Program-made: the position numbers and the translations under genes | The notes under the pieces: generated by a model | Told to the model about the DNA's origin: nothing | What the model saw: only the letters and a program-made list of their open reading frames with translations | Database searches by the model: none | From: Leucoraja ocellata | Taxonomy: Eukaryota | Assembly (NCBI GenBank): GCA_036785375.1 | Contig: JAWMAR010000030.1 | Span: 7,626,001 to 7,690,000 of the forward strand | Direction: 5' to 3' | Length of the DNA stretch: 64,000 bases | In this document: positions 338 to 64,000 of the stretch, in pieces | How the letters are laid out: every line of letters begins with the position of its first letter | How positions within the stretch are numbered: the stretch's first letter is position 1

Positions 338-3300
338 CTGCAAAAGGAAGAAACATCTTTCAGTGTATACACTAGGCAAACTTTGCAAAAGGTTCATGAA
401 ACAGTGGACTGTGCTGTGCAGGTTCTGATTGTGACTTGTAAAATGGATAGTAGTTTGCTGATTGAGTGGAAATCCTTTTACATGTTGCCATTTGACAGAC
501 AAAAAGATTTCGGGGGATTTAGGCCAAATACGGGCTAATGGGACCAGCTCAGATGGGGTATCTTGGTCAGCATGGATGAGTTGGACCGAAGGGCTGGTTT
601 CCATGCTGTATGACATTAAACACACCAAATCACACATACGTCAGTAATACCCAGAGCTATCTTTTGTCTAATTCTTAGATTTAATTGTTTCCAAAATCTG
701 ATTTTGCTGGATGAAAAATGTTTTGTGTTTTTTTTACAATTTGCTTCAAGTTTCATCTGAAATTGTCCTTTCCTGTGATCTGGATTGCATTGCAAGCTTC
801 AATGGTCATTTTCAGAAAAGGGTAAATTTGTAAAGAAGATACATTTTCAGGGCTAGGGACTAATAGCAAAGTTCTTTCTAAGAGGTGGAATTGCAAATTG
901 GGTGAATAGCCCCCCTTTTGGATGCCCTCTGGTACAAACATAGGGCATCGATCCTGCCCTCGGCTGCTGCATGTGTGGTGTTTGCACGTTCTCCCTGTGA
1001 CTGCGTAGGTTTCCTCCGGGTGCAAAGGTTTCCTCCCACATCCCAAAGACGTACGGGTTTGTAGGTCAATTGGTCTCTGTAAATTGCCCCCAATGTGTAG
1101 GGAGTGGATGGCAAAATGGGATAACATTGAACTTGTGTGAACGGGTGATCAATGGTCAGCCTGGACTTGGTGGAGAGAACGGTTTGTTTCCATCTCTAAA
1201 AACAAAACAAAAACTAGAAAAGGATCTAAATCAGGCACTGGGATGAAGAGTGGGAATTAAATAGGGCTAGATGTTAAATGGAAGTGGTTAAATGTAATGG
1301 GAACTTAAACGGGATGGAGAGGAAATCGAGACCAGCAGCCATTTCCTTGGCACCAATATGGTACTATTCTTCAAGACCACTTTGACCCTATAGTGTTAAG
1401 CACCAAAATGAAGCGAGCATCAGCTGCAGATACTCACAGTTGAGCCTGGAAGTCCAACAGGGCCTGGCAATCCAGGAGGGCCTTGTAATCCTGGCTCTCC
1501 CCTTTCTCCTTTTTCACCTGTGGGCCCATCTAAACCCTAAACACATAATACAAAAGGAAACTACTTCAGGGCATTGAAGGCTAATTCAAAATGCTCTAGT
1601 CTAAGTGTTCAAGAAGGAACTGCAGATGCTGGAAGATCGAAGGTACGCAAAAATGCTGGAGAAACTCAGCGGGTGCAGCAGCATCTATGGAGCGAAGGAA
1701 ATAGGCGATGTTTTGGGCCGAAGAAGGGTTTTCGGCCCGAAACGTCGCCTATTTCCTTCGCTCAATAGATGCTGCTGCACCCGCTGAGTTTCTCCAGTAT
1801 TTTTGTGTACCTTTATGCTCTAGTCTAAGTTGGATTGGTCAGAAATGGGATAGTATTTCAAAAGTAAAGTAACATTTAAGTCTTCTGACTCAACTAACAC
1901 TATAGGGTCAATTTAACTGCAGTTAATGCAAGAAGAATTTATCGTATTTCATAACTTAGCCAGTCTGGTCAACATGTAAAACTTTTGCAGTTCATGATTA
2001 TAAATGAAAACCTTTTGCATATAATTGTCAAAATATTTAACTATGATGAAGATTGGACAGATTTATATTAATGTTTATAGACTCGAGGGCGTATATCTGA
2101 AGTGAGGTTTTGAAGACTTGAACTCACAGGTGATCCGACCATTCCGGTATCTCCTTTGGCTCCCTTGGGACCGGGGAATCCCATAATTCCTGCCTCGCCC
2201 TTGGTTCCTTCGGGTCCCAGTGGCCCTTGTGGACCTGAGGGTCCAAAGTCTCCTGGCTTCCCGCGGGGGCCCTGAGAGGATTAAACCATGTTATCCAGAC
2301 AAACTCTTATTGCCACAAGAAGGGTGAACAAGGGTAAAGACAGATTATGTGAACTCTGTACGCCCATGACGAACAGTGGCTTTTTAAAAATGCAATATTA
2401 CCTTTTCTCCATCAAGTCCTGGTACCCCCGGTAGGCCTATTTCACCCTATAAAAATAGAGTAACATATCAGTAAATACATTCTGCCAATGCATAGCAAAC
2501 AAACTGATTGTGTTTTAGAAACAAGTACGGTGGTGCATAGGTAGCGTTGCTGCCTTGCAGTGACTAAGAGCTGGGTTCAATCTTGACCACGGGTGCTGTC
2601 TGTACAGAGTTTGTACGTTCTTCCCATGACCGCATGGGTTTTCTCCGAGATCTTCGGTTTCCTCGCACATTCCAAAGATGTACAGGTTTGTAGGTTAATT
2701 GGCTTGGTGTGTAGGATAGTGTTGTACAGCTTTTAAAAAATATATATATTAAAGAAAGATTAGAATAAGAAAAAGAGATTAGATAGTAAAGGATAGAAAG
2801 ACGTGAGATATATAGTGTGTGAAGAAAAAGAAAGAAGACGGATGAGTGAAGAAAGTTGAGAAAAAGGAAATAGGAAAAAGAGAATAAAACATAAATTAAA
2901 AAAAAAAAAAAAAAAAAAAGTAAGGAGATCATCATTTATAATCTTGACCAACCCTTGTCCGGTCCTGAAACAGTTATTTTTTACAATTGTGTTGCACCAT
3001 ATGATTCCAAAAAGACGACAAATGGAGACCAACTCGTTATGAATTGGTCTGATTTATCCATTAGGAGGAATCGCATTTCCTCAAGATGAGCGGTGGCCAA
3101 CATACTTGCAATCCACATTTTAAGCGTTGGTATTGATGTATTTTTCCAAAATTTAAGTATTAATTTTTTTGCTATTATTAAACCATAGTTAAAATAAATT
3201 TTGAGATGTGTTCAATTTATTCCCATCTTCCATTATGCCAAATATAATCATTTCAGTATTAGGTTCCATTCTTATCTTAAATAATTTTGTAAATATTTCG

Positions 3301-6300
3301 AAAATATCACTCCAAAATCTATAAAGATTTATGCAGGAAACTAAGGAGTGTGTTATAGTTGCATTTTGGGATAGACATTTATCACAAATGGCGGATATAT
3401 TTGGATAAAATTTGTTCAATCTTGTTTTTGAATAATATAATCTATGTAAAATTTTAAATTGAATTAGGTTATGTCTTACATTAATCGAACATTTGTGAAT
3501 ATATATCAAGTACTTTTCCCATGTAACCTTCGTAATTTTTATCATTAGTTCCCGTTCCCACTCTTCTCTAAGTACCTCTGTCGATGGTAGGTCTATATTT
3601 AAAATACTATTATATAAATATGTGTTAGGATAGTGTTAATGTGCGGGGATTGATGGTCTATGGGGACTCAATGGGCTGAAGGGCCTGTTTTCGTGCTGTA
3701 TTTCTAAACCAAAAAAAAACAAAACTAAAGTAACTGCAGATGCTGGGTTTACAAAAAAAAGGCACAAAGCATCTTCAGATGGTCTGAAGATGAGTCCTGA
3801 CCCGAAATGTCATCTATCCATGTTCTCTAAAGATTCTACCTGACCCACTGAGTTATTTCAGCACTTTAATTGTATTTCAGCTTGCATTTCAAGGTACTTA
3901 AGACATTTCAGTATAAATTCCCAAGTCGCTAACAAGCAACAAACGCAATACAACATTGGGAAAGAAGTGTTTATATTTGCTACTGTATGAAAATGTTTCA
4001 AAAACCAGGAAGCTTCTAATAACAAATACAGCAAAGGAAGTCTTTTTAATATTTATGGGGCTGAAATGAGTATTGCGAGACAGTAAATTGGGAGCCAGTT
4101 TGTATTGNNNNNNNNNNNNNNNNNNNNNNNNNNNNNNNNNNNNNNNNNNNNNNNNNNNNNNNNNNNNNNNNNNNNNNNNNNNNNNNNNNNNNNNNNNNNN
4201 NNNNNNNNNNNNNNNNNNNNNNNNNNNNNNNNNNNNGGCATATATGCATGCACTGAACTTTTTCTCGTTTATTATATTACTTACAGTGTTCTAGGTTTAC
4301 ATATTCCATTGTGCTGCTGCAAGTAAGAATTTAATTGTTCTATCTGGGACATTTGACAATAAAACACTCTAAACTCATGAAAAGCGCCCCGGGTGTAAAA
4401 CAAGTGGAAATCATTACTGTCAACGTGGAAGCTTTCCTGCTTTGAGTCAATTAACTGGGTGAAAACATACCTTCTGGCCTGGTAGACCTGGCATTCCTGG
4501 AACTCCTGGAGGTCCCTAAACATAAATGATACATGTCCTCATCAGTTCATCAGGATAGCGTGACATATTAAGTCATAACCTTGATTTTAGACTGCAAAAT
4601 CATGTAGAATTTCATCCAAAAGTACAATCTGGTGCAATGTTTTTGGCCCATGCCACAATCATGGCCAATATGTATTATTCCTTTAATAACTCAAACAGAA
4701 AAGATATGCCATTATTGTCCAATTCCATGAAACAGAAATGAAATTGAAGGGAAGATCTGCATCATTTTGTTGGGAAACACTTTACAGATAATGATGTCAT
4801 CACTGTTGCAATGTGATGGGTGTGGCAGCCATTTTGTGCACGGCAAGCTCCCATGAACAGAAATGCAACCAATAACTAGAGGTTGTGATGTTCAGTGAGG
4901 ATAAAGGTTGGCCATAATGCCATAGAGAAATACTTTGATCTTCAAAACAGACCCACGGGATCTTCTGCATCCACATGTGAGAGGCTACTAGGCCTCATCT
5001 GAAATACAGCACTTCCTGCAGTACAGCACTCCCTCAGAGTGGGGGAAATCAGTGAGAGTTAAATGCTCAGGCCTCTGGGTTGGGCCTTGAACCTACGATT
5101 GCTAGGAACTATGCCATAGATAATGATACTGGATTCTTGATTTGGTTCTTTCTTTATTCATAATGGAATCATGGAGCAGGATAGAAGATGCAGCCTTGAC
5201 CTTGGTGCAAGAATTGGGCAGTTTCTGCTCTCATCCATTTATGCAGAAGTGAATCAATACTGTGTACTTCAACACAGCAGGTTGGTGTGAGCTGGTGCTT
5301 AATGCAGGAAATGTCGTGAAACCAGGCATGCAGGTATCATTCCAAATGAAGCGGGGTGAATGCATGGGAAGAGAATCAGTTGCAAGCAGAGGAAAGGAAC
5401 TAATTTGAGAGCTGTTTTAATCATAAGCACAATAGACTCAACGGTCTTCACTTATGGCGTGTGACTCTACCATTTGTAAATTGATCTGTTCACACCACCC
5501 CTGGACTATTTACAAAATATATACAGCCACATTGCAGAAAACAACTACAGTGCGTAACTCGGCTCTTAAATAACGTGTACCTGGAGTGCTTCATTGATGT
5601 TACCATTATAGTCAATTATCTCAGTTTTTCCTGCTTCGCCTTTCATACCTGGAAGGCCCTATAGAACAGACATGAGGAATTAAACAACACACTGTTAGAG
5701 TCAGCCTGAAACCTGCCTAATTGAAGCTCATTTTATTCATTCCACAGCCAAACTGGAGGATTAGTGGATGATCTTCAACCATAAATTGTGTCTACAGAGT
5801 ATATGACTTCCCCAGTTTTTAAATGTATTATTTATGATATACAAACCACATCCAATGTAAAATCAGTCAGAAAAAAATGCATAATGTTGAGACTGTTTGT
5901 CCCACCCCCCCCCCCCCCCCCCCCACTTTAAAATTGAAGTCATACTGTAATCTCAGAGAAAAGTGGGAATCACTTTTCATAATCTGCTATTTGTTCCCAC
6001 ACAAGACGGAGGGGTGGGGTTGTAGCTGTGGATGTAGAAACGGAAGGAGGTAGGAGAAGGTGAAAAAGGCTAGAGTGTGTGAGTGTGCGAGTGAGTAAGT
6101 GAATGTGTCTCTCGGGGTCTTTGTGTGGGTATGGGCATATGAGGGTATGCATATTTGTGTATATGCATATGTGTGTATATGCTTAGGCGTGTTTGTGTGT
6201 GATCACATGTGTTGGCATGTGCCTGTTCATACATGTATGTGTGCATATCATTTCCAAATGTAGCAAAACAGCTGCTTTGTCTCTCCTTAGAGGAATTAAT

Positions 6301-9300
6301 TACTAAAACAAACTTGCTTTACATTGAATGTCACCAACTACCAAAGCCAAACTCACCTGAACTCCTCGTTCACCCAATTCACCCTGCAAGAAATACCATA
6401 ACAAATGTTTACTTGAATATTGCAAAAACATGATAGGAGTACAACAATAATTATTCTCCTGGTAACGCCTTCTAATGGTGGCTTTGATAATATCAAGGAG
6501 CTCCAGTGAAGGAAACAAGAGAATATTGAACCCAGGTGCAACTGAGGAGATGGAAACAGGTCACCAGGTGTGGGAAGGTTCAGAAGGACTCTCCTGGGAG
6601 ATGAGGATGATCTTTCACCTGAAAACTGGCACCCTCCTCTATCCTGGAACAACCCCCTACAGACCTGTACACAGGACATCTTCCCAAAGCCCCCCCTCTG
6701 TGTGTTTCTCACTCAAGTGAGTCCCCTCCAATGACTATCATAAAAACAGTCTACACTTCTGGACATCACTCTCCATCTACAGAATCCCTCCTTTCCCAAC
6801 AACCCAGGTCCGTTCTTGACCTAGCCTTCATCTGCTAGCTGAGCCTTTCCACCTTCACTCATAAAGGGAATGAAACAACGACATTGTAATGCACTGCAGA
6901 GTCAAATTAATGAATGGACAGAAATACATGAGGGTGGGCCTCTCTCCGCTTGTTCCCTACACCAGGAACAGGTGATTCCAAACTGCAGATAGTGCGGAGT
7001 GCTCTCGGGTCACTTTGCCAGGTATTGAATTAATGTGCCGACTCCAGTGAGCTGAGCCCCAAACCCCAACAATCCATCCAGTTCCAATACCACCTTGTGG
7101 ATAAGACATTAAACTAGTTGGCTGTAAATTGTTTCCCTGCACGAGCTTAAAGAAATACAGTGGAATTGTCTCCAATGCCCTGGCCAATGTTTATCCCTCA
7201 CTCAGCACCCTGAAGCAGATACATAAGTGTGATTACCCACTTGTTGTGGACCTCACTTTGCTCACATGTCCTGTACCCCTCATTACATTGATGACCATGA
7301 AAGAACTTCATCAACTTCAATGACATTTTGGGTATCCTGAGGTTAGGAAAGGTGCTGTAGGAGTGCAAGTTCTTTCTCTCTAAAATTGACGCGAGTCACA
7401 ACAGACTTCATTCACAGTTTTAAATTTTGATTAGAATAATTTGCTATCATTATGGGGATTAATGAAGAAATAAATGGATACGCACCTTCTGACCTGGAGG
7501 GCCTACAGGTCCAGGCAGGCCTGAATCACCCTTAATTCCACCAGCAGCAGATCCTGGCTCTCCTCCTTCCCCCTGTTTAAGGAGACCACATTGTTCCATT
7601 AAACACAGATGTAGATTAGTGATCATCTATTATTTATCCACAATTGGCAATCTTCTTGTTGGACTCAAATAACAGTGCAACAGATAAAAACTGAAAGGCG
7701 CACACCTTTGTGAATGGACCCAAGAAACATCAGCGAGTCTCGGATTTTTAAGCGCATGACGCTGAAGTCCAAGTCTCACTGAGTGATAAATGGTTGCTCC
7801 AACACTGGATTTCATGGAGAGACCAATGAAAGAGCCCAAGGTAGACACAAAATGCAGGAGTAACAGTGAGTCAGGCAGCATCTCTGGTGAAAAGGGATAG
7901 GTGACATTTTGGATCGAGACCCTTCTTCAGAGGAAGAAAGACTTCAGTCTTCCAAAAGATCAGAGACCTCCATTGATTTCAGATACTCTTTCAGGCTTGT
8001 AGAATGCACGATTTGCTTTTAATTGAATGTCATACTCGAATATTTAATGACGTTATCATTCTTATGCATTTTTAATGCATGTTATATTTCTGGTGTCAGA
8101 AATATTTAAAAATGTTAAGACATAAGATTTTGCCAGAAGACAAATCTCCACGGACAGATTTGCCTCCTTTTAATGCCTGTTCAGGCCGTGCTGGAAACAT
8201 TGGGGGAGTGTAGCTTCAGTTCTACACCATTGCTGCTGATTCCTTGCCTTCTGACCTCAGTTTGCAGACGGGCCGACAAGATTGATCCTTCTAATCCGGA
8301 CATGATGGGAACCACAGTGTTTCCAGCAGAAGTGACGAGCTCTGGGTCTAGCATCTCTGGGTCTGACAGTCTACAAAAGTCACTTCAACACCATCCAAAC
8401 TTTGGTTGTTCGTGTACATAGTTCTAGAATAGTGGCAGTCAGCTATTCTTATATAATTAGCACAATGGCTTCTTTGGTTTCAAGTCATTGCTGCCATTTT
8501 ATTATTCTACCAATCAAAGTAATGTTAGGTAACAAAAACCCCGCATTTATATTGCGTCTTTAATGAAAGAAAGTTCCTAATGAGCATTGTCAGCCAAAAT
8601 AGTAGAAATATTAGGTTACCAAAAGCTTGATTGTTTGAAGGCAAAAAATACCTTAAAGGTGGAGAGGGGAAGGGAGGGAGGGGAGAGAGAGAGAGTGAAA
8701 GAGAGAGTAAGGGAAGTCTGGATGTTGGCATCCAGAACTTCCTAATTTTGTAGTTCTGCCCCAACTTTGGGGTCAACATGATATTAACATTTTAAATTAA
8801 ATTCAAAATATGACTGCAAAATTAAATTATACTGCATACTTTTTTTTCCTTAATATTTATATGCTTTTAAACCGATGAGATGACTGGAAGCAATGAGAAA
8901 GCATAGGGCTGATGTGGCTTTAAATTCTGCTGGCTGAGGTCTAGTCACACTGTTCCCCTGTGCCCCCATCCACAGAACAAATGTAATGACAAGGTTTGGC
9001 TTTGTTAGATACAGCGCGGAAACAGGCTCTTTGGCCTACCGAGTCTGCACCGACCATCGATCCCTGCACATTAGCACTATCCTACACACACACACACTAG
9101 GGACAATTTACACATACTCCAAGCCAATTAACCTACAAACCTGTATATCTTTGGTGTGTGGGGGAAAAACGAAGATCTCAAGATAAAACACACGTGGGTC
9201 ACGGGGAGAAGGTACAAACTCCGTACAGTCAGCACCCGTAGTCAGGAAGGAACTTGGGTCTCTGCCGACGTAAGGAAGCGACTCTACCACTGTAACACCA

Positions 9301-12300
9301 TGCCGCAGGGTGGCAGGTCAGTGGGTTCCAAGTTGTTGCAGGTATCCCGCTAGGTGAGTAACCTGGTGGATCATTTGGTGATGGCGTGGAGTAGGGTGAA
9401 GGAGGTAAAATCTGTCACCATGTTGCCTGCAGTGTTGCTGAAGGACAGCATGTGGACAACAGATCAGTTAGGTCAAAGATAGATCCCTGTGCACAGATGC
9501 ACAGATAATTTGTTTATAAAAATGAAGAAATACTGTAGATATTCCCATTTTGTTCCAGTCAGACAGGGGTGCGCTAATGAACAGTTCATATTGCCACTCA
9601 TTTCAAATAAACAAGCCCTTAATTGATGCCAGTTATCTGTGTGAGGTATTCTATATAAAGTAGCTTCTGAAAGAGCAGACTTACTTTCTGCCCTGGGGCA
9701 CCTTCAATCCCAGGTATGCCACTTTCACCCTGTACAATATAAACACCCATGTTAGAAATCAAGCAACATTAGTGTCTATTGCAAGCTAGCAATATCCCAA
9801 TTCGATAAGAGGGTTTCAAATTCAGAGTGAAAAAAATGCATTTTAAAATTAGAAACCAGCAGAGTATCTTCCGTCAAAATCTAGAAAATCAATTGGAAGT
9901 GAAAGAAGAATGAACTGTGATATTTCTTATCATTTTGCTGAGATTTTTCTTACTTAAAAACCATAACTCTCCTCTGCTGTAATGCTGGCCTGTAACCCGA
10001 ATCTAGCTTCCATATATCACCACGTTGTATATTACTATCCATCAAGGATAAGCTATTCGACAGCTATGAGACACGGAGGCTTTGCACAACTACAAAGCAA
10101 TATTTTAAAGAAAATTCACTGAACCAAAATGATGAAAGACACACATGCTAGAAAAATGGTAGAACCTGGCTTAGACATCTCCACTATCAATCACTGGGGT
10201 CAACTTTCTCTTGAACCTACTTTACTCCCCAATCTATACTCGTTTCACTCGAGTCTCAGAGCGCCCCTGTTCTGAAATATTAATGTGCTGTGACGTAATG
10301 TGTTCACAACAGCACCACAGCTCCACAGGTTAGCACTGCTTTGTTCTTGTTGTGGTCGGATGCCCATGAACTACGTGATTAAACATTTTTCAGTAACTTT
10401 CAGGAGTTAGTGAATGATTGTACACAGTACTTGTTAACTTATGCTCCATCCTCACAACATCCTGAATCACTATCCAACTGTTTACAAACATATTAATCAC
10501 CTGCAAAACTTAACAACACTCGGCTCTTTTTTTTAATACTCTAACAATTAAACTAGATTTTTTTCTGAATGCTCCATACTTGTATCTGATTATGGTTTGG
10601 GATGGTGCGAATTTTCATTACCATTGACGTAACAATTATTGTCACAACTTCTAGTGATTTGTGTGTGGGAGAGGAGTGATTTAAAATGATTTGCTCAGCT
10701 CTTGAATCCAATTAGCTGGTTTGCCATTGATTTTCTTTGTCCTAACTTTGGTTATAATCACTCATGGGGAAATTAATCAAATGTTTAAACAGTTGATTTT
10801 TATTAGTTTGACATAAAAATTAAGTTATTTCTTGTTGAAATTCACCAAATGTGTATTCATGGAGTGTGTGTACCAAAGGAGATGGGAATTGGTAAGAGAA
10901 TGAATGCAGGAGAGGATCACCTTGGAGCATTTTGAGAGATCAGGTATGAGAATACAAATAGCCAGTGCCTGCACCTCAATCTGATCTTCTTAAATAATGT
11001 TAAAAGTCTGTAAATATGGCAGAAGGCAATGGAAACTCTTCTTAAGATCTCGCAATGAAGTAACGCAAGGCAAGCAACCGCAAATCCAACCACATCAGAC
11101 CAAACATAATCATCTTCAGTGTGATTAAAATCTCACTGAGGTCCTGAATTCCTTCAGACAGGGTTACACTGAGGATCTTATACTGAATGGGTGGGGGACA
11201 TGCACATGCACATAGAGGAGATACTATCAGATGTTACCATCACATGCAGCTGTGCATCAAACAGTGCACAGGGACTTTCAATGTAAAGTGCCAACTTTAG
11301 CTGTGATTTCCCACACTACCCATGCATTGTAACTTCCAAAAATAACAAAGTCCATTGTCTGAATCAAACTTAAAGAGTCATCACACACATCTCCCCAAGT
11401 CCAGAGTTTGCGCTTAAATCACAATCTACATTCAAAGTGGAAATGAATATTTAATTATTTATTCTAAATTTTACAAAGCAAAATGCATCTAAAGTATCCA
11501 TACTGGAAGTGCTTACATCGAACCTCCAGCATAGAAACAGGACTTTCAGCCACACAGTTGGGTTGACATATTTATGTATTTTTCAGGATCTAAACATTGC
11601 TGACAAGGCTGGTATTTATTGTGCAGAGTGAATGGTGAATCAGCTCTCGAACTGGTGCAGTCTGTCTGTCCAAAAGGACTGCTCCAGCTCAAGACGGTGG
11701 TTCACCTTTACTGATGGGTAAGGACCTATAGAGTGGACAATGGCATTGACAGTTATGCAATCATCAGCAATCATCCCTACTTCTGATCATATAACAGAAA
11801 GAGGTTATTAATGAAGCACTTCAGGATGGCCGGGCCCAGGCCACTCCCTAATGTCCCTGTCCCACTTGGGAAACCTGAACGGAAACCTCGGGAGACTTTG
11901 CGCCCCACCCAAGGTTTCCGTGCGGTTCCCAGAGGCTGCAGGTGGTTGCCGGAGGTTGCAGGGAGTGGAAGCAGGTAGGGAGACTGACAAAAACCTCCGG
12001 GAAGCGCACGGAAACCTTGGGTGGGGCGCAAAGTCTCCAGAGGTTTCCGTTCAGGTTTCCTAAGTGGGACAGGGGCATTAGGAACTCAAATCAAGCGATC
12101 GTAGTCTGCAGAAACCTTGGATCATTTAATCCAGTGAACGTATCCTTATATTTTATGGGAATGGGAAGGGAGTTAAAATGATTAGTAATCGAGAGATCCA
12201 GCAGGCCTTGACAGACCGAGCTCAAGGGGTCAGCAAAACGATCGCCTAGTCTATGTTTGGGGTTGTCGATGTAAAGGAAGCCACATCAGAAACTCTGAGT

Positions 12301-20908: not shown

Positions 20909-20967
<59 letters not shown>

Positions 20968-47900: not shown

Positions 47901-50900
47901 GAAAAATATAGATAGCAGAGAGGAATTTAAGGAAGATCGTCACAAAGGAATGTTTAGAATTTTGACACAGATCGGGAAGGAACTTTGGGAGAGTTTATTA
48001 TCTCCATGGTGTTAGAGTAGCAATTGCCTCTCCAGCGCCTATTGTAATGACAAAGTTTGGGCATTTAAAAAAAAATACAGAAAAACTCCTAAACTTAATA
48101 CTGCTAAAGCCCATGTCCCACTGTACGAGGTGATTCACGAGTTCGCCCAAGTTTTTTCCTAATTTGAACTCGGAGAATGTGCGTAGGGAGTTCGTGGATG
48201 TCTCGTAGCAGCTGGTAATGCTAACGGTAGGTACTCGGAACATCCAGTAAACTCGTGATGTTTTTTCATCAGTGTAAAAAATGTCCACGAGTAAAAAAAT
48301 ACTCGTGATAAAAAAATCTTTTACTTTTTACTCGTAAGAGCCGCTACGAGACATCCACAAACTCCTACGGACCCGCTACGGACATTCTCTGATCAGGGGA
48401 AAACTCAGGAGAACTCGTGAATTACCTCGTACAGTGGGACAGGGGCTTAAGTTATTTCCAAAAAAATAGAAAAAGCTTCATGCAGCATTTCTTAGATTGC
48501 ATTGTTACTGTGAGGGTGACAGGATAGATTCTGACTGCTTGGATTCAGTAAGATCTTTTCCTCCAACACCATTCTCCTTCGTTATTTCTATATCCCTTGA
48601 GTTCTCTCAATAGCTAAAGAATGATTGGTCTCCTCCATGGGAGGACCAGGAAAGGACATGGAAGGGAGATGCAATTTGATGTTCCTGGAGAGTGATTAAG
48701 CCAACACATTCATAAATGTTGCCAAATGCAACCATTACACAAATCATTTATTTGGAAGCATGCTTCGGAAACCCAACCATCCATGTTAATGGTCAAAGCA
48801 CAATGAGAAATATGGCCCTCCCCCTCAAAAAGAGATTGCTGGGAAATTGACTGCTGTTCCATTCCACATAACTATACATATTGGAACATGAATTCTGAAG
48901 ATCCATGCAATTGAGCAACAGCAAGTTTAAAATATGTTTTTTATAAACCAGATCGACTCTTGGGAGAGCGAGTTTTTGAGGTGAGAGTAAACAGACTGGA
49001 TCTTCACTCCTAAGAGTTTAGCAGGATGAGAGGTGACCTCATCGAAATGTACAGCAACTTTGCAATGTCGATGCAGAGTCATTGGTAACTGGAGCTAGCG
49101 ATCACATTCTCACAATAAGGGGTTAGCCATTGAAGAGAGGGAAGAGAAGAAATGTCTTCACCCAGTGGGTGGTGACATTTTGAAATTCTCCACCAGAGAT
49201 GACTATGGAGCATCAGTCATTGTGAACTGTATATTCAAGTCAGAGATCTATGGGATTTTAGATATTAAAGGAATCAAATGATGTGGGACTAGTGAGGGAA
49301 AGTAGTGCTTTAGAAGTTTAAATATTCTTATTGAGCAGATACAAATGGCGAGTGGCTCACTCCTTCTGTTTCCTATCTCATGCTCCCCTATAAGTATTTC
49401 AAGTCTTGACCTGAAACATCACCTACCCATGCTCTCCAGAGATGTGAGCTGACCTGCTGAGTTATGCCAGCACTTTGTGCCATTTTTGTTTGTAAATCAG
49501 CATTTTAGGTCCTTATGTCTATATTCAATGTAATAGTCATCATCACTGCATCAATTATGGAAGAGGAGTCAGAATTATGGCCTTGAATGGTCACTATTCT
49601 AAGGCATTGTAAAACAACAGTATGACTAAACCATTCCACAGTGTGTGCTAAACAAATCCACTTTAACTGATTTAAATTCCCTTGAGATTGAAAAAAAAGC
49701 AACAATCTACCCCTGTGAACAGAAGTTCTACAATCTTTGTTATCAAAGCAGCCAGACATGCCAGGATTTTACAGTCTGGGGTTAATTTAGACGACTTTCT
49801 AGATGTCCTGGTAATAGGTCTGTACAGGATCATGAGATGTGATACAATTCTTTTGGCTATCAAACAATCTATGATGTAACCTTCCGAAAAGACTGCTGAT
49901 TTTGCTACATCTACAAAAGCTGAGATGAGCAATAAACAGCTCATTTATGAATATTGGAGGCATGGTTCCAACAGATAAAATACGAAATTGCTTAGATAAT
50001 AAACATTTATAAGTTCTGATAATATTTTTATCTGTCACTTTAGTACAAACCTAGAAATAAATATGTTTGGTGAACATTGAATACAAATATCACCAGTCAT
50101 ACTAAATAAGGGGGTTTCCAATAATAACAATTAGTCAAATAACAATGGGAAAAGATAAAATTCAACGTTTAATTATTGTTACAGGATTGGTAGTGCTATT
50201 TCATTTAAAAACCCAAAGGAATCTTTTCAGTTTGTAATTGTAGTTTGGAGACCAATGTTTACGCAACCTTCCATTTTAAGGTCTTAGTTATAATCTCAAA
50301 GCAGCATATAGTTTAATTCCTCACCAGCCACCAATAAAGTGAAACGATTATGTCAAGCCCGTTTAGGAAAGGGGACTGAGAACATGGGGACTCCTCTGTC
50401 ACAGATGAACATGGCTGCCGGACTTTAAGTTAGATTTGAGATTCAGTTTTAATCAATTCCCATAAGGAGGATTAAACAAATTGAAGCCAAGTGGTATACA
50501 GCCACCAGGCAGTTTCTGTATCAGATACCCAGACCCACATTATTTTATACCATGGTTTAACAAACTGTATATGTGGAATTTGCAAACATTGGTAGGGCAG
50601 GATAACAGTACAGGTTGTTAGGGAGTAAAATAAAAACAATGGCCAATATCAGGGCTGTAGGAAAATCTGAATATTTCTTTACTTGTATTTGTAAATGGAA
50701 TGTTGATAAGTCCTGACCCTGCAAAAATGTCATTATTTTTCATTGTGCATTGTGTACTGTGGAAATAAGAATGCTTTATCCTCAAATGTCCCAATCTGAT
50801 GTTAAACTATGAGTGACCATGTTTTCACGTGTAAATATTTGTCCAGAGACCTGTCTCAGGAAGTGAAAGTGTAGAATGGAACTGCAGATGCTGGTTATAC

Positions 50901-53900
50901 ACCGAAGATAGATACAAAATGTTGGAGTAACTCAGCGGGACAGGCAGCATCTCTGGATAGGAGGAGTGGGTGACGTTTCTGGACGAGACCCTTATTCAGA
51001 CTAGGGTCGAAGACCTTAAAGAAAGGTCTCGACGCGAAACGTCATCCATTCCTTCTATCCAGGGATGCTGCCTGTTCCCGCTGAGTTACTCCAGCATTTT
51101 GTTTCTATATTCAGTGGGGAATGAGGGATCAGAGTGATCATGCAGAAACCACAACTGTAATGTCTTTACCCAGAGAATAATTACATTCAATTTAATTATT
51201 TTAGAAAAAATGAAAATCAGCGGACGTATAAAGCAGAGACTGTTGTAGTTACCATGTTGAAACATGCACCAGATTGTTTAATGGTTTATTAAATGGACAT
51301 GCCAACACCAGTGTGATATGGCTGCGTTCTCGAGATCTATATTGTAGATGTGATCACTAGAGGGATGCTCGTATCAAAATGTAACTTAATTTGGGGGCTC
51401 TGGATTGATTTTACGAAACAAATTAATTATTTTAATGATCGCCAACGGCTTTCACTAAGATTGAAAATAATTGCAATGTGAGAAAAACACAGTAAATGTT
51501 TTCAGTAAAACTGGTATTTCAATAATAAAAGTGAGTCAAACTGAATTATGGAGAAAGTTAATTCAGAAAGCGTTAAATCAAAGGGAATGGATGGAATGAA
51601 ACACCATTAATTACATTCTTGAACCGTTAAAATTGAAATTATAGCCATATTTAAGGACTAACTTTGCATTCCTCCCCCTTGCTAGAGAATATATAAACTC
51701 ATTATATGACCTTTTACGTACATGGCTATGAAAACAGACTTTTCAAGAAATATTACTTACAGTCAATGCTGAATCTCCACGTTGACCCTAGGAAATGACA
51801 GAATAATCATATTTGAGTTTGCATTTAGTTTATTATTATGTGTACCAATTAACAGTGACATTTTTTGTTGTGTGCTAACCAGTCAGTGGAAAGACAATAC
51901 ATGATTACAATCGAGCCATTCTTCTTTATGTTCTCAGTTAGTTTTATATCTTCTCTCAGTTTTGCAAACAAATAGTTAACACATTGGAACTTTTTACTTA
52001 ACATTGGTAAAATTTGTAAACTGTGAGCTCTCACCTTGTCTCCTTTTGCACCATGTAGACCCTGTGCAAACATAAACAGTGAGCCATATCCAAAACCACC
52101 TCACTATATCAAAATTACATCTTTAAAGTTCAACTCAGCATTACGATGGTTATAAAGAATGGAACATAAGAATTCAGAACATAAATACATATCTTATGAT
52201 ATCTTGTTTTATATTTACAATAAGAGTATATATTGACATTGACCTAGAGTCTCTCTGTTAGACATCTCATCATAAGCAACGGCAAACAGCAAAACTTCAA
52301 GTAATATTCAGTAAAGCTTCAAGTAATATTCAGTATATTTCAAGTAATAAAATGAAGCTCATGCAAATATATATTAATGCCAGCAAAAAAATGTAATGTC
52401 TCAAAAATATCCATTGACTTGGCCTCCGGTGTATATGCAATGAATTCCACAGATTCAACAGCCTCTGACTAAAGAAATTCCTCCTCATCTCCTTTCTAAA
52501 GGTACGCCCTCTTATTCCGAGGCTATGGGCTCTGGTCCTAGACTATCCCACTAGCGGAAACATCCTCTCCACATTCACTCTATCAGGTCTTTCTTTTGGG
52601 TGATTGGTGGACTGACGTTGGTGAATAAAACCCTACACAGCATTGCTTACTGTTCTGGGTGAGCACTGGAGTTGTGCTGTGAATCTGCACAATGCTTAGG
52701 CCGTGTGTGAGGCTGCCCTGATTATGTTACGGCACAGTTTTGAAAGGGAAGGTAACATGCTTGTGAGGAAAGGTATCTTCCGTGGACAATCGAGTAAATT
52801 GTGCTTGTAGCGGCCAGAAATGCCAAACAGGTCAATATCCTTGAAATCCAGAAACATAGCAAAAGGCACCTTTTTTTTCTTTAGGGAAGTGTTAGATTCA
52901 GTGCTACCTGAAGAAATACATAGGCAAACCTTCTCTTAATATTATGAGTGGGTTATTCTTTGCCATGGAATCTATTCAGTTGATCATTTCCTTCTCCCTT
53001 CCCATCAATCCAAGATTCCTGCAACCCCTAACACTAACCTCACATCTTTCTCTACTTCTCCCACTCCCTTTGATCCTCCAGCAGTAGTTCTTGGAAGAAC
53101 ATTTATTCTCCCCTCGTGTCATTTTTCCCATCTGTTCCTGTTCTTATAAAACCTTTCACTCACAGTCTTCTTTCTAGTAACTTAGCGGGCAGTAATTGAC
53201 TATTTTATTCCTCGTGTTTAAAAGAAATTTGATCTGTTGGGCAGCTGAACTGGCCTCCGACAAAAGAAGCAAAAATAAATAGTATTAGTTCGAACAGCAG
53301 CACTGGGCCAGCATTTTAAATACACACAAACAAAAAAAACCCTCAAAACCAGTCCCCTCAGGAGCTATACAACACGTTCAAATTAGGCTGAAAGATTAAA
53401 CGGTCCCAACCCTATAATTATGCATTCATTACAATAGATTTGAAAGGATTGAATGGCAATATTAAAGCTGGAGTAAGGAGTTTGAAAAAGTAATCCAATG
53501 AACTTGCAATGCACACTGAAACCAGACCAGTTAGTTTGTCCTTGTATACTATTATGCCAGTGTAAAACCTTTGATGATTAATTCATTCAAAGCGTCCAGT
53601 TAGCTACCTGAGATTCACCAATAAATATTCAACTTGGTTGTCAGAGACTGCACACTTCAAAAGCTGCCGCCAGTGTACGTGATTTGTTTTCAGATCATGT
53701 GACTTTCAGCATCAGAATTGTGACTTTCAGATCTTAAAATATGTCAGGAAATAATTTTGTAATGAAGGTTGCCAAAGGCCAGGAATAATCTCATCAACCA
53801 GGAGAAGGGAATGTTCGAATAAAATGCAATCAACCCTGCTCCACATTTTCAGGGTTGGGATTGGTAAATTTATCCACAAAGTTACACTTCATCCAATATC

Positions 53901-56900
53901 CTGCCCACACCATTCCCATGACCACTCTAACTATTTAAGACCCTGTAGGTCTGATTAAACTATAGGTTTATTTATTGCAGCTGTTGCACAAAGTGGAGTC
54001 ATCTATGAGCTATTGCTAGGCCTCAGGAGGTGGGATTAATTTTGTGTACAATTCCTCTTGCTATAAACGTCACAATGCTTCAGAAATACTTGATTGACTG
54101 TTTTGAGATGTCCTAAGGTTATTAAAGGAACTCTTGTAATGCACTTCTTGCCTCTTTCCATTGGTTACCAGATTACCTTCCTTTGGTTATCCAACAATAA
54201 ACATCACCAAAAACAGATGAAGTGGCCATTTGTCTCACTGATGTTACTGGGATTTGTCTACAAAATTGCAATTCATCAAAAATGTGCTTCAAAATACAAA
54301 TTCTCCCCTTCAGCAACTTATTTGATTGTGCTAGCCTTGTTACAAAATTCTTAAGGGGTTGGACAGGCTAGATGCAGGAAGATTGTTCCCGATGTTGGGG
54401 AAGTCCAGGACAAGGGGTCACAGCTTAAGGATAAGGGGGAAATCCTTTAAAACCGAGATGAGAAGAACTTTTTTCACACAGAGAGTGGTGAATCTCTGGA
54501 ACTCTCTGCCACAGAGGGTAGTTGAGGCCAGTTAATTGGCTATATTTAAGAGGGAGTTAGATGTGGCCCTTGTGGCTAAGGGGATCAGGGGGTATGGAGA
54601 GAAGGCAGGTACGGGATACTGAGTTGGATGATCAGCCATGATCATATTGAATGGCGGTGCAGGCTCGAAGGGCCGAATGGCCTACTCCTGCACATAATTT
54701 CTATGTTTCTATGTTATTCCAAATGCTGGGCTTTTTTGCCTGTTGTTCCAATGCATTGATTAACTGAACATTTCAAGAACAAACTATTTTTAAATTGGAA
54801 TTATTTTAGTTTAGTTTAGAGAAACAGCGTGGAAACAGGCCCTTCGGCCCACAGAGTCTGCACCAACCAGCGATCCCTGCACATTAGCACTATCCTATAC
54901 ACACTAGAGACAATTTTACATTTTGTACCTAGCCAATTAACCTGCAAACCTGTAAGTCTTTGGAGTGTGGGAAGAAACCAAAGATGTGGGGAGAAACTGA
55001 AGATCTCGGAGAACACCCACGGGGTTACGGGGAGAATGTACAAACTCCGCACAGACAACACCCATTGTTGGGATCAAACCCGGGTCTCTGGTACTGTAAG
55101 CGTTGTAAGGGAGCAACTCTACCGCTGCGCCACAGTGCCGCCCGGGATGTACTGGAAGAATAGCAAAAATGACCAGCAGTCCTTTGAGGGGATAATGCAA
55201 TGATACAAAGCCACAATTAATGATCACTGCTTATGGCTCAGTATATCAGCACTGTTAAAGGTAGTCTTGAACCTGAGCACTTCAAGGAATAGTTTTCAAA
55301 GAGTCATCTTAAATGTTGTAAATGTTTGGCTTTACAAAGCAGAAGGCTTGCAAAGGGTACAGAAATGAAAATCAAACTTTTGGGCACCTCAAAAATGGAA
55401 CAAAAATTTGTGACTTTAAAGAACAAATTCAGCGATTTCTAGAACAGCCGATGTTGGTTTACAAAAAATGACACAAAGTACTGGAGTAACTCAGTCGGCC
55501 TGGCAGCATCTCTGGAGAACCTGGATAGGTGACCCGAAATGCCACCCATTCATTCTACCCACCAAATTACTCCAGCACTTTGGGTCTTTTTTTAATGAGT
55601 GAATTCTAACTTGCTTTCATTTTACGGTACGTTGCTGTAATCTGTGCAATTTGTAGTGCAGACACCAGCTATTGCAAGCACAGAAGAAATGACACATGCC
55701 AGCAGATAAAAGTGCATCTAGTTTGGAATGAATAGCTGTGACTTAAAGGCATAGACTGGAACTTTAAAATATATGCACAACAGCGTGACTGTCTCTCTGG
55801 TTAATGTGGAAACATGTGCGGCCATTTTCTACATTGCAAGCTCACTCTCATTCATTACTGCTACACATGGGACTAGTTGCACTGGTGATGTTATTTGTTC
55901 CTGTACACTCCTTTATAATTTGAATTACTTTGTATAGATAAAATATATATAAACCATTTTTTTGCTGTTCATTATGGTGTTTACAGAGTAGTACTGCATG
56001 TTGACACATCTGTTGTGCTGATGCAAGTAAGAATTTCATTGTTCCGTTTCAGGACATATGACAATAAAACACTTGACTCAGTCCGTGTGAACCTATCATT
56101 TTAGCCAATTAATAAATGCATTTCTAAACTTCACAAGTTTATTCTTCAATATGTTAAATTCAGAATTGCAACTTACCTTTTCTCCTTTAAGACCAATGTA
56201 TCCCTTTAGAAAGCAACAACACAATGTGATAATATTAGGGAGCTTAAAAACATTGCAACAAAGAACAGATGGAGGTCATTACACCCCCAGGACTGATTTG
56301 CATTCAGTGAGATCATGGTTGACCTGTGATTGTAATTTGTTATATTTATCCTTTTCCAAGATATCATAATTCTCACAGTTATCAATGACAAAATATATGA
56401 AATTGGTAATTTTGCAGCATCAAGTGTTGCCTATGGAACAGTTCCACATCGCCTAGCCCTCTCCGTGTAAATGTGTTCCCTCGCATTCTATCAGTCTTTT
56501 TGATTATTTGTACCTCTTAATGTAATAGCGATCTCTGGACAAAGTTGCTTGGGGGCACCACGTTTTCTAGTTTTTTCACCCAGAGAGTTGTGAATCTGTG
56601 GAATTCTCTGCCTCAGAAGACTGTGGAGGCCAATTCTCTGGATGCTTTCAAGAGAGAGTTAGATAGAGCTCTTAAAATTGGCGGAGTCAAGGGATATGGG
56701 GAGAAGGCAGGAACAGGGTACTGTTTGTGGATGATCAGCCATGATCACTGTGAATGGCGGTGCTGGCCCGAAGGGCCGAATGGCCTATTCCTGCACCCTT
56801 TGTCTTTTATTGTTTCAAACAAATATGACAGTTTACTCAGGACCTCTAAGGCTTAAAATTTTAAATAGATGATATTATCTCTTATTATTGCAGACTTGCT

Positions 56901-59900
56901 CACCTTTTCACCTTTTGGACCAGGTGAGCCCTGCAAAAACATAAAATTAAGTTAGAACTTGAATGTGGATCGTAAAGTTTACTCCCTGTAAAATATGAGA
57001 GGGTGCTTTTCGAATCTTGAACAAAAGTGCAGAAGTGATGAAATTCTGCAGAGGTATTTAAAATCACGTCACATGGTAGGAAATGCTGAATGTAAAGATT
57101 TACATGTAAAAAATTGCAAGACACAGACTCCCATTTCAGAAACTTCAGAGAAGTTGGAAATAATATCCAAAAATATCTGATAATAGTTATTTCACAATTT
57201 CGCCAGATAGTGGTAAGCATTAGTCATTCATGCTGCTGATAAAATTCAACTTGCTAGGAAATAAATATATGAGATTTTGGTTTGTACTTTGGATCTGCAA
57301 CTAAAGATTCCGTGGCTGCATACTGCATACTGCCTATGGGGCTTAAGTTTTGATTTGTGTCTCCAACACTTGAAGCCAGATCACAAATGTCAGTTAGCAA
57401 AATGTAACCCATATTATCTAATTGTTTACACATGCACTCAAATATTCATGTATCAACTTGTATGCATATGGTTTCTTCAACAGCAGTGGGTGTACAATGC
57501 ACATCAAACAATCCTAACAGAGTCCACCAAATAAAGGATTCAATTCAAATTCAATTCAATTAGCTGGAAAGGGTACAGAGAGGATTTACAAGGATGCTGC
57601 CAGGGCCAGAGGGTCTGGGCTATAGGGAGAGGTTAAGGAGGCTGGGACTGTATTCATTTGGAGCACAGGAGGATGAGGGACATGTTGGTCCAAAGGGCCT
57701 GTTTCCACACTCTATCACTCAATGACTTTGACTCTAAAAGTTGAAGAAGGGTCTTGACCCGAAAGGTCACCCATTCCTTCTCTTCAGAAATGCTGCCTGC
57801 TCCGTTGAGTTACTCCAACATTTTTTGTCTATCTTCGGTGTACACCAGCACCTGCAGTTCCTTCCTACACAGATAACTTAAGCTGCCTTTGTTGGTCCAA
57901 CGCTCGATGAAGATGGATAACATTTTGCATGCACCTTCTTAAAGGAAAGCTACTTTGATTTTTGTTATACCTACCATGTCACCTTTAGATCCAGCTTTCC
58001 CCTGAAAAAGCAAAAATAAAATATTAAACAACAGAACACGGACAAAAAGAATATTGCAAATTTATTTTTATTTTCCAACTCCCGCTCCCCAACTTATGAA
58101 ATCAGATGAAAAATATACAAGGAATGAATGTCCCAAGCCCATGTCCACATATGTGCTACGTTGTTTTACTCAGACATTACTGCTTTGAGCCTTCTACTAT
58201 GATATACCATGAGCACATAATCAAACGTTTCATTCATCAATTCAACAATCACTTTAATAAAAACGTCTGTAAGAACAGTATTCCTTTGATTAAAACGTGA
58301 AAAGGCAGAATTGCCCATTTAGCTAATGTAGCCAAATGTTTCTAAGTGCAATGAATTGACTGAGGATTTCAACTTTAAATGAAAGTTCACAACCAAAGCC
58401 AAGTTCAAAGATGTTAGATCAGCTGCTAGACTGATTTTTCTTCATATCAATGTATGTTTGAAATTCCAATCCCGCCAATTTGTGTATCAAACTTGAAAGG
58501 TTAGATGTTCACACAATGGGTAGTTGTGGATAATATATTGCAGTACTACTGAGATCAAAACAACAGCATATTGTGAGCACATTAAAGCTTGGAAATGGGC
58601 TCCAGCCAGATCGCCAGATATCAAATGCCACCAGCAAGCGATATTGAACAAGAAGGCAAAGCGCAATAGATTTAACATTGTGGTTCTCAATGTTTCAAAT
58701 TATTCTGAAATGTTTTGTCTCAATGTATTATATAATAAAAACACATTGAAGACTGATCACTTGCCAAGCACTGAGCAGTCCAGGGCTCACCATGAGGGGT
58801 TCCCAACCATGTCTTCATTTTGAATTAATCATTGGCTTTAGTTGTGGACTTCCATTGCAATATATCCCCCTGTCCTCACTCCATACCTCAGTCCTGAGGA
58901 GGGGTCATAGTATCTTCTGATCCATTTGGCCAGAAGATTTAACCATCCCTTTGAATGTGTTAGCCTGGCTAGTTCAATACCTATACATGGAAATTCAACC
59001 TTGGGACCAAGATGAAGTTTTGTAGCCCAGATGAAGTTTGGCGCTAAGGGTGTCTAAGAGTTTCTCAGAATTAAATAAAATCTCACAGAGTAACCCAGGA
59101 GATGAATGTATCTGTCAATACAGATCATGGATTGAACCAGACTGATGCTGCACGTGATCTCAGGGACAAATAGCAATGGACAACAAATCCTAGCTTTGCA
59201 CATAGCCTGAGAGGGATTAAAAATGATGGAGACTGTTTTTGCTATTGCCTGATTTGATTTGGTCTAAAACCAACACCACTCTCTTAACACCTTCTGATGT
59301 GGACAAGTAATCCAATATGTTGTGGAGTTGCAGGGAAAGGAATAAATATGAGGCACATGCACACGCACAAAAGCTGGTACGGAATGTTTTTTATGATGTT
59401 ACATAATCTTATAACAATATATAGAAAAATGAAATACTTACAGATTTACCATCCAAACCTATAGGGCCCTTCAAAATAAATTAAACATTGATGAATACAA
59501 ATTTAGAATCAAAATGTTTCACAATATAAAATTTAAGGCAGTTGATTATTTTCAAAGACATTTCAGCATCAATGTGACTCTGAATCCATTAGTTGAATCG
59601 AGCAGTGGAAGAGTTAGTACACAAACATAGAAGCAGAGAAGATGCTCTTTTCCAGACTTGTTTAGTCACCAGCATTTTGTTAAGATGCAGATTTTAGCTG
59701 GCTCCCATCAGCTGGTAGTGAAGTGTGTAAAGCACGCTCAAACCTGGTCAGTTTATTGTTTCAATATGTTCACCAAAAAATAAGAAAAAAGACAAACGGA
59801 AGCAGCTTGGCAAATTGAACACAACACAGCTGGCAAGAAATGAATATGTTAAATGGTAAATCATTTCTGACAATATTAACTGTTAAAATATATTTTTCCA

Positions 59901-63063: not shown

Positions 63064-64000
63064 TAGCTAAGCAGATCCAGGACAAGGATAAATGACATTT
63101 TAGGCCGGAGTCCTTCAAACATCTACAGTTCCTTGTGTCTCCCTTTCTGATCTTCCCTGGCATTTTTGCACAGTAAGCACCCTTTGCACAAGGAAGCTGT
63201 TTCCTGTAGCCTGTGCATGTCCCTCTGTTTTCTGAGAGGACTCTGCCACCTCCTCCCAGCCACAATCGTGGCATGCACTCGTTCCTTGCCAACACGACCC
63301 AGTCGCTGAATGAAAGGGATTGCATTGTGGTATGACCCTTTAAGTGCCAGAGCTACTTCCTGAGGTCAGAGCTGTGAGGAAAGGTACTATTAACGGGAGA
63401 AACATGACACCTACCTCCAGCTGTTTCTGAAAACGAGTACTGTTACACCAGGGAGCCTGTTGGCATTGTCTTGGAACTGGTGCTTATTCATTTCACAAAC
63501 TTCTTTTTAGAGTTTATTTCAAAGCAACATCGGGGAGACTGTTAATTTCAGAGAAGCGTGGCAGATGAATTCTTAGGCCTATACTCAGTCCCTCTAACAA
63601 GTGGCCATATATGTGCACACTTAGACGGTCTGGTTGGCAAACTATTCTGTGTGGATCCTGTTACTGAATAAATTTGGGAGAGGTGATAGTGATGAAGGAA
63701 GAAAACTAACACAACCCAGCAGAATCTGACAAGGCCCATCATGGGCAGTGAGGAGCACATCTGCCTGAGTCAGAAGGTTACATATTTAATTCTCTCACCA
63801 GAGGAGTGAGCACCAAAATGTCAATTACTCTAAACTGTTAATGTTGAACAGGGTTCCAACCATTTGCTCAGGTGGAGAGGAAAGAACGTTAAAGGTGTAC
63901 TGTTTCAAAGAAGAGCAGGAAAGTCCGGATTGACAGCCTGTCCAACATCAATTAAATCTCACCAAAGGGATTACTTGGCAACTATCACACTCCTGCTTTT

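Follow-up and report, generated by a model that had tools for sequence, protein, structure and literature searches.

The window analyzed here, a 64,000-nucleotide (nt) stretch of Leucoraja ocellata DNA (contig JAWMAR010000030.1, positions 7,626,001 to 7,690,000; 41% G+C), contains a collagen gene on the minus strand (1438-61936) with 16 Gly-X-Y exons bounded by AG/GT edges (three rows of the exon list share one exon). We take this gene to resemble the transmembrane collagen COL13A1. All of the hammerhead-bearing repeat copies discussed below lie in its introns. An earlier note on this DNA had described them as a family of about 20 short elements derived from Penelope-like elements (PLEs), at a density of about one per 3 kb. 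Self-comparison of the window places these repeats in one family. A profile hidden Markov model (HMM) built on 15 seed arms identified 38 arms of one ~135-nt unit at E ≤ 0.05. They group into 25 loci, somewhat more than had been estimated, and cover 3602 bp (5.6% of the window), with one locus per ~2.6 kb. The seed model had no matches at E ≤ 1 in the reversed window used as a control. Two of the arms match only weakly (33209-33281, E 0.0036; 63080-63116, E 0.03). All 12 of the motif cores listed in the earlier note were recovered with their positions and strands. Arms are 72-95% identical to their own consensus (median 86%), and the copies have a subfamily structure with one well-supported clade (98/94).

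Head-to-head inverted pairs account for 12 of the loci, and 13 of the 25 are single-armed. Target-site duplications (TSDs), which the note had reported at 10-16 bp in several copies, were confirmed, with lengths varying from 7 to 20 bp. TSD scores of at least 9 were obtained for eight of the 25 loci versus 1% of 600 random position pairs, and scores of at least 7 for 13 loci versus 14% of the random pairs. Seven of the 12 inverted loci have a TSD score of at least 8.

The Penelope origin proposed for the family is upheld by one copy joined to the end of a PLE open reading frame (ORF) and by a PLE reverse transcriptase (RT)/GIY-YIG fragment in the window. The joined copy (23102-23338, minus strand) is bounded by a TSD within the 3′ end of a long interspersed nuclear element (LINE). 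Upstream of its core is a C/T-rich tract, followed by a short reading frame with its stop. Among 83,171 six-frame 8-mers of the window scored against the C-termini of three PLE proteins, the top one is at 23341, exactly where the long copy begins; the PLE proteins of Hypanus and Mobula end in ...NIDFSNFR and ...NIDFSGFR, respectively. A C-rich tract is also present upstream of the unit in the copies at 18808-19009 and 24703-24790, with a C fraction of 0.56-0.68 (1% of background 25-mers reach 0.52). From the ORF-end link and the C-rich tract in two further copies we conclude that the unit is, as judged from sequence, the putative pseudo-long terminal repeat (pLTR) of a PLE.

The second piece of evidence is a broken ORF (12169-12738, minus strand) that matches protein P0001 (E 2.6e-13). 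P0001 in turn matches three proteins of rays (Hypanus and Mobula are named), two of which carry PF26215, presumably a PLE-associated family. Direct comparison of the fragment with the ray PLE proteins gave tblastn E values of 3e-25 to 1e-11. By eye, the ray proteins have the YIDD motif of RTs, a CxxxxCxxC linker and a GIY-YIG-type domain. In the Atlas, P0001 has GIY-YIG clusters as its look-alikes (0.95-0.96), with the family present on 22-55% of their members, and a search of PDB sequences with P0001 had no matches. The Cys-motif linker is present in the homologues P0001 and P0015-P0017 and degraded in the window fragment. A zinc-finger linker between the RT and the endonuclease is a mark of Neptune and Nematis PLEs (PMC8557442). 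Judged by its linker motif, the parent PLE probably belongs to the Neptune clade. A Pfam scan of the 150 longest of the 212 stop-free frames of at least 65 amino acids (aa) identified a LINE RT, zf-RVT, collagen and one sub-threshold match and no PLE domain, because the PLE fragment is too broken.

For an open frame through one copy of the unit, a search turned up no homologue of greater length. In the representative library it matched 13 proteins, none of them a full PLE protein: 11 are short translations (54-247 aa) of sequence that looks similar, and the other two are long repeat proteins without relation to it. One of the 13, P0007, reads through the unit and then into an off-frame PLE C-terminal piece. 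We saw neither an in-frame ATG nor a conserved frame in the unit, and we do not claim it as a coding sequence, the frame not being conserved across subfamilies. A short interspersed nuclear element (SINE) derived from a tRNA was also considered and rejected because the unit lacks a tRNA-like head (no genes by ARAGORN and no tRNA family among the Rfam matches for the window) and traces to a PLE. An exact-pattern scan of bacterial and archaeal genomes had no matches, and RNAalifold returned no consensus structure for the body and tail of 15 long arms.

The 3′ ends of the arms fall into two classes. In the numbering used here, C3 of the hammerhead core is u1 and the predicted cleavage follows u28. 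By local alignment, 14 of the 38 arms end at u86-103, none at u104-119 and 20 at u120-132, with four ending earlier. Two of the 20 long alignments (18982+ and 43192-) run into the TSD, which makes both short and brings the classes to 16 short and 18 long. Ends defined by TSDs are at u126-135 when long and at u91-98 when short, with outliers at u83 and u106. The ~32 nt that separate the two classes are the PLE tail. Inverted pairs combine the classes strictly, for each of the 11 classifiable pairs unites a long with a short end (p about 5e-4 under independence); the twelfth joins a long arm to a truncated one. The junctions of the 12 pairs are all different, several of them at microhomologies, and therefore the palindromes formed during insertion instead of being inherited from a master copy that was already palindromic. 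We also identified one heptamer at both u75-81 and u105-111, 15-19 nt before each 3′-end class, that could position the RT; spaced 30 nt apart, the two are not significant as an internal duplication (p 0.10).

The 5′ ends, in turn, pile up just before the core. Twenty-two of the 38 arms start at u≤4 (three of these extend further upstream), with a mode at u-2, the A of TCAGT, and a p of about 1e-10 against a uniform spread. Only two arms start at the cleavage site (u29). The long arm of the pair at 35283-35491 begins at exactly the first base after it. The start of the long arm at 42066-42263 is ambiguous, as a deletion between two short repeats (microhomology) could also have placed it there.

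The hammerhead motif reported in the earlier note stands for the family but for few of its members. The consensus has the CUGANGA-H, GAAA and NUH elements and the palindromic 15.2/16.2 positions of a minimal type I hammerhead and fits the minimal PLE consensus of PMC4209133 (Fig. S3), including the ACGU palindrome. Yet only two of the 12 quoted cores, 21315(-) and 23235(-), fit a strict minimal-hammerhead descriptor; these are its only sites in the window, against a mean of 0.005 in 200 shuffles. All 12 catalytic positions are kept in three of the 22 core-bearing arms, and the ACGT palindrome as well in one (21288-21315, minus strand). The motif has decayed mainly by CpG transitions. No hammerhead family was among the 12 Rfam matches for the window at E ≤ 10, which are of a hairpin-driven microRNA type and below gathering scores.

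Outside CpG sites, the catalytic positions of the motif are kept in 92% of cases, compared with 86% in the body of the unit (p about 0.005 by permutation of columns). N7 and the extra A, neither of them catalytic, are conserved to the same degree, and the excess at catalytic positions is inflated by the way local alignment treats its edges. In stem II, 78% of cells are paired versus 7-42% when the stem is slid. The covariation that the note proposed to look for in stem II was not above shuffles (96/500), with 22 decayed copies affording little power. Helix I has 0-3 contiguous pairs, and 2 bp in most of the 22 arms. Among published minimal PLE hammerheads, cleavage is weak and requires a dimer (PMC4209133); the one of the Anolis PLE cleaves only with protein (PMC11167929).

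Table 1. Unit copies and PLE fragment in the window, with the strand of single units and the strand of each arm of inverted pairs.
Feature	Position	Strand	Remarks
Inverted pair: long-ended arm minus, short-ended arm plus	1607-1814		Core on plus, C3/U4 lost at junction; 16-bp TSD
Inverted pair: tail-bearing stub minus (3728-3768), short-ended arm plus	3728-3880		Core 3784 plus; TSD not found
Single short-ended unit	7831-7931	-	Core 7903-7930, G12 mutated
Degraded Neptune-type PLE ORF fragment	12169-12738	-	RT end, Cys-motif linker, GIY-YIG start; frameshifted, with stop; unattached to unit
Inverted pair: long arm minus, short arm plus	13111-13313		Core 13219 plus; 20-bp TSD with 3 mismatches, overlaps short end
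Single long-ended unit	13934-14067	+	Core at 13937
Single long-ended unit	14333-14468	-	Degenerate core
Unit with short internal duplication	14999-15145	-	Two profile matches
Inverted pair: long arm minus running upstream into C-rich tract, short arm plus	18808-19009		17-bp TSD
Single short-ended unit, best-preserved core	21223-21320	-	Core 21288-21315, all 12 catalytic positions and ACGT; 7-bp TSD
Single long-ended unit	21359-21487	-	U4 mutated; 16-bp TSD
Long-ended unit with C/T-rich 3′ untranslated region (UTR) and last ~8 codons and stop of PLE ORF	23102-23341	-	Core 23208-23235 fits descriptor; 9-12-bp TSD inside LINE 3′ end
Partial unit with upstream C-rich tract	24703-24790	-	
Inverted pair without core: long arm minus, short arm plus	25916-26044		10-16-bp TSD
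Single short-ended unit	31868-31970	-	Core 31938-31965, A14 mutated
Inverted pair joined within stem II: long arm plus, truncated arm minus	32023-32188		
Inverted pair, both cores: long arm minus, short arm plus	32992-33209		Plus core 33130; 15-bp A-rich TSD
Older, more diverged inverted pair	33209-33401		
Inverted pair: long arm minus, short arm plus with damaged core	35283-35491		9-bp TSD
Inverted pair: short arm minus, long arm plus	42066-42263		TSD 8 bp or more
Single short-ended unit	43213-43310	-	Core 43282-43309; 7-bp TSD
Long-ended unit, start within stem II	49395-49514	+	
Inverted pair, both cores: long arm minus, short arm plus	50869-51115		Minus core 50972-50999; TSD not found
Inverted pair joined at microhomology inside motif: long arm minus, short arm plus	55442-55592		
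Single long-ended unit	57739-57871	+	Core 57741, C3 missing
Weak, short, diverged fragment	63070-63120	-	E 0.03

Taken together, the family probably consists of solo or inverted pLTRs of a Neptune-type PLE, made when reverse transcription started internally on RNA that had not been cleaved. The predicted order in the parent is the end of the ORF, a C/T-rich 3′ UTR, the minimal hammerhead, ~65 nt, a first RT start, the ~32-nt tail and a second start. In Anolis, the PLE RT has two internal start sites, one at either end of the tail; the target is cut on both strands, each of which is then extended, mainly with uncleaved RNA as the template (PMC11167929). By analogy with this in vitro system, the RT/GIY-YIG protein of the skate parent would nick the target and start cDNA synthesis internally at either site. 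Priming of one strand would yield a single copy of ~97 nt or ~130 nt. If both nicked strands were primed, one per site, and the cDNAs joined, often at microhomologies, an asymmetric palindrome between TSDs would result. The cDNAs would read through the uncleaved hammerhead and mostly end within a few bases before the core. As for what stops them, we favor run-off at the 5′ end of an RNA whose transcription starts at the initiator-like TCAGT, the simplest cause and one that may quite possibly be correct. A rotifer pLTR has an initiator-like TCACT (PMC3846280). A match to a downstream promoter element was too weak to claim. The hammerhead would be inherited from the parent and decay neutrally after insertion, without being needed to make the short copies.

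Several observations weigh against this scenario. A full-length element with two pLTRs is absent from the window, the ORF link is a single copy of about eight codons whose first codon overlaps the TSD, and the ORF fragment at 12169-12738 is unattached to a unit and has no Pfam match at E<0.01. Roughly half of the loci (12 of 25, with scores below 7) lack a recognizable TSD. Only three of the 12 pairs have arms that match each other best, and in five they are among the top three matches, a weak point even if it is expected for old copies. Starts at the cleavage site are slightly above the uniform expectation (p about 0.02, post hoc), and the better-kept catalytic positions indicate that the motif was probably under selection in parent lineages. 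Furthermore, the proposed transcription start at the 5′ boundary is read from sequence position.

One alternative, which is compatible with internal initiation on PLE RNA and differs only in the origin of the template, is that the short copies are themselves transcribed source genes, making a SINE-like, non-autonomous family with an internal promoter that is mobilized in trans. The ratio of 25 short loci to one ORF-linked copy and one loose ORF fragment speaks for it, as does the division into subfamilies. The unit also covers the region that was a sufficient template for the PLE of Anolis (PMC11167929). In addition, an internal promoter is known from Penelope (PMC2377424), and non-autonomous elements from Chlamys (PMC8557442). 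However, the best-supported subfamily holds the ORF-linked copy, so that at least this subfamily came from ORF-bearing RNA, and no captured flank common to the copies was seen. We therefore regard source genes as a tenable but tentative explanation. An extension of it is a self-propagating ~135-nt 'Penelope SINE' in rays and skates, in which a solo pLTR with an initiator before the hammerhead and both RT start sites would have reached SINE-like density. This is a speculative and somewhat unlikely idea. If it were true, the strict long-plus-short palindromes would be in vivo proof of a PLE dimer priming both strands, one per start site, and the hammerhead might still cut when bound by the PLE protein or paired in trans.

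A different cause for the 5′ pile-up is arrest of the RT at the C-rich tract, or a splice acceptor, made up of a pyrimidine tract and CAG and ending at helix I. In the D. virilis Penelope, helix I is bordered on its 5′ side by the end of an intron (PMC4209133), and the start site is 46 nt before a 75-nt intron (PMC2377424). Three copies in the window do read through the C-rich tract, and the AAAG that precedes the unit in three copies could be the end of an exon. A common upstream exon was, nevertheless, not seen among the other starts, and cDNAs would come to the modal start, the A of TCAGT, ahead of the C-rich tract. Arrest or splicing is a serious, though less probable, rival to run-off. 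The UCAG just before helix I also occurs in published PLE hammerheads, for example those of Nasonia, Ixodes 2 and Trimeresurus (PMC4209133, Fig. S3), and may be an initiator or an acceptor shared with the unit.

The inverted copies could also arise by self-priming fold-back on an antisense template, as proposed in PMC3846280, instead of priming on two strands. Several junctions do lie in short palindromes or microhomologies (stem II; the fold-backs at 3770-3790 and 33114-33130). But fold-back alone leaves the pairing of one short with one long end unexplained, and in vitro the PLE, given sense RNA, makes extensions on both strands (PMC11167929). This route is, for these reasons, unlikely.

The earlier note had called the family retrozyme-like, a reading in which hammerhead cleavage of tandem transcripts yields unit-length linear or circular RNA that is reinserted by the PLE protein. 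The hammerhead consensus with its two strict copies, the slightly better conserved core and the two arms starting at the cleavage site agree with it. Non-LTR retrozymes derive from pLTRs and were found in one chondrichthyan sampled (10.64898/2026.07.22.740005). Like those of animals, the unit is short, non-coding and pLTR-related and has a type I hammerhead (PMC7229834; 10.64898/2026.07.22.740005). Retrozymes form head-to-tail tandem repeats, typically with canonical hammerheads, that are processed to circles (PMC7229834; 10.64898/2026.07.22.740005), whereas copies of the unit are scattered singly or as head-to-head pairs and have a minimal motif. None of 27 Tandem Repeats Finder (TRF) rows involves the unit, and its ends are neither set by cleavage nor circularly permuted. 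The short helix I and a stem II covariation no higher than in shuffles may count against this reading too, and palindromic copies are predicted to form long hairpins instead (-65 to -146 kcal/mol). Just one pair of units lies close together on the same strand (21223-21487); their cores are 168 nt apart, their TSDs are separate, and the dimer fold, when imposed on them, costs 23.6 kcal/mol more than the free fold. Fourteen of the 22 cores are on the sense strand of the collagen pre-mRNA, hence there is no depletion and no sign of selection against cleavage. A retrozyme-like origin is highly improbable; because tandem units and cleavage-defined ends were looked for and not found, the family is not a non-LTR retrozyme.

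That the palindromes are miniature inverted-repeat transposable elements (MITEs), that is, DNA transposons resembling hammerheads by chance, has a negligible probability despite their shape and the true MITE-like elements in the same window (11847-12082 and 48104-48451), for it is contradicted by arms unequal by a fixed tail, junctions that all differ, single-armed loci, the ORF link and long, variable TSDs instead of fixed terminal inverted repeats and a fixed short TSD.

Other repeats and a strand bias were also identified in the window. The long arm is on the host sense strand in 10 of the 12 pairs, and 10 of the 13 single loci are likewise oriented; this bias (20 of 25 loci, p 0.004) comes from one window. 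The LINE that hosts the ORF-linked copy (21836-23400, plus strand) is a 3′ part with a 365-aa RT frame matching RVT_1 and ALKBH8_N, and the copy interrupts its 3′ end. Relatives of this 3′ end are at 4297-4368 and 56009-56073, and another LINE fragment (3192-3635, minus strand) has a sub-threshold zf-RVT match. The two MITE-like palindromes share a terminal repeat and have TTAA-like ends; we take them to be Kolobok-like. A second dispersed family of ~250-340 bp comprises 15 intervals in the self-comparison (948-1194, 9007-9307, 39706-39991, 43368-43648 and 54801-55141, plus others) and presumably resembles the elasmobranch HE1 SINE.

Among known systems, the closest are the pLTRs of endonuclease-bearing (EN+) PLEs such as Neptune, which carry a hammerhead, have a tail at one end (30-40 nt there), and occur with head-to-head inverted, 5′-truncated copies, solo pLTRs and the Cys-motif linker (PMC8557442, PMC3846280). 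TSDs in the rotifer examples are 8-10 bp (PMC8557442, PMC3846280). A hammerhead in the pLTR, the tail, inverted copies and solo pLTRs have, thus, all been described before, and the family is not a new kind of element. What differs from the EN+ PLE pLTRs is that nearly all insertions are pLTR-only (98-250 bp), at one per ~2.6 kb, and that the 5′ boundary of the unit is sharp and lies immediately ahead of the hammerhead core. We found no account in the literature of this family in rays or skates, though Repbase or Dfam may well hold it. Nor did we find one of the strict long-plus-short pairing, on which the retrozyme-family supplements of 10.64898/2026.07.22.740005 (one chondrichthyan) may bear.

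The motif matches the minimal hammerheads of metazoan PLEs (PMC4209133) in CUGANGA, the extra nucleotide before stem II, G10.1-C11.1, GAAA, the palindromic 15.2-16.2 and NUH. Its 2-bp helix I is at the low end of the published 2-6 bp, and its stem II has 4-5 bp with a tiny loop; most copies of the motif are mutated. Metazoan PLE hammerheads are mostly single motifs, with dual motifs 100-700 bp apart on opposite strands (PMC4209133). Cartilaginous fish are absent among the Fig. S3 rows examined of the same paper.

The family also resembles the Anolis Poseidon PLE (PAc; PMC11167929) in the order of its parts, a hammerhead and then two internal RT start sites with the tail between them, and, as we infer here, in the use of uncleaved RNA as a template. 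The first RT start is ~68 nt after the cleavage site in the unit versus ~85-92 nt in PAc (PMC11167929). PAc belongs to a different clade, and its ORF starts at stem II (PMC11167929), unlike the unit with its lack of an in-frame ATG. At its share of the window, the unit may rank among the major repeats of the host genome and supply its introns with long hairpins. Its value is that of a large natural data set, in which footprints of PLE integration and of the role of the hammerhead can be counted. The long and short ends in every classifiable inverted pair point to priming of two strands at two sites, and the 5′ ends before the core point to an uncleaved template RNA, in agreement with the in vitro work on Anolis (PMC11167929).

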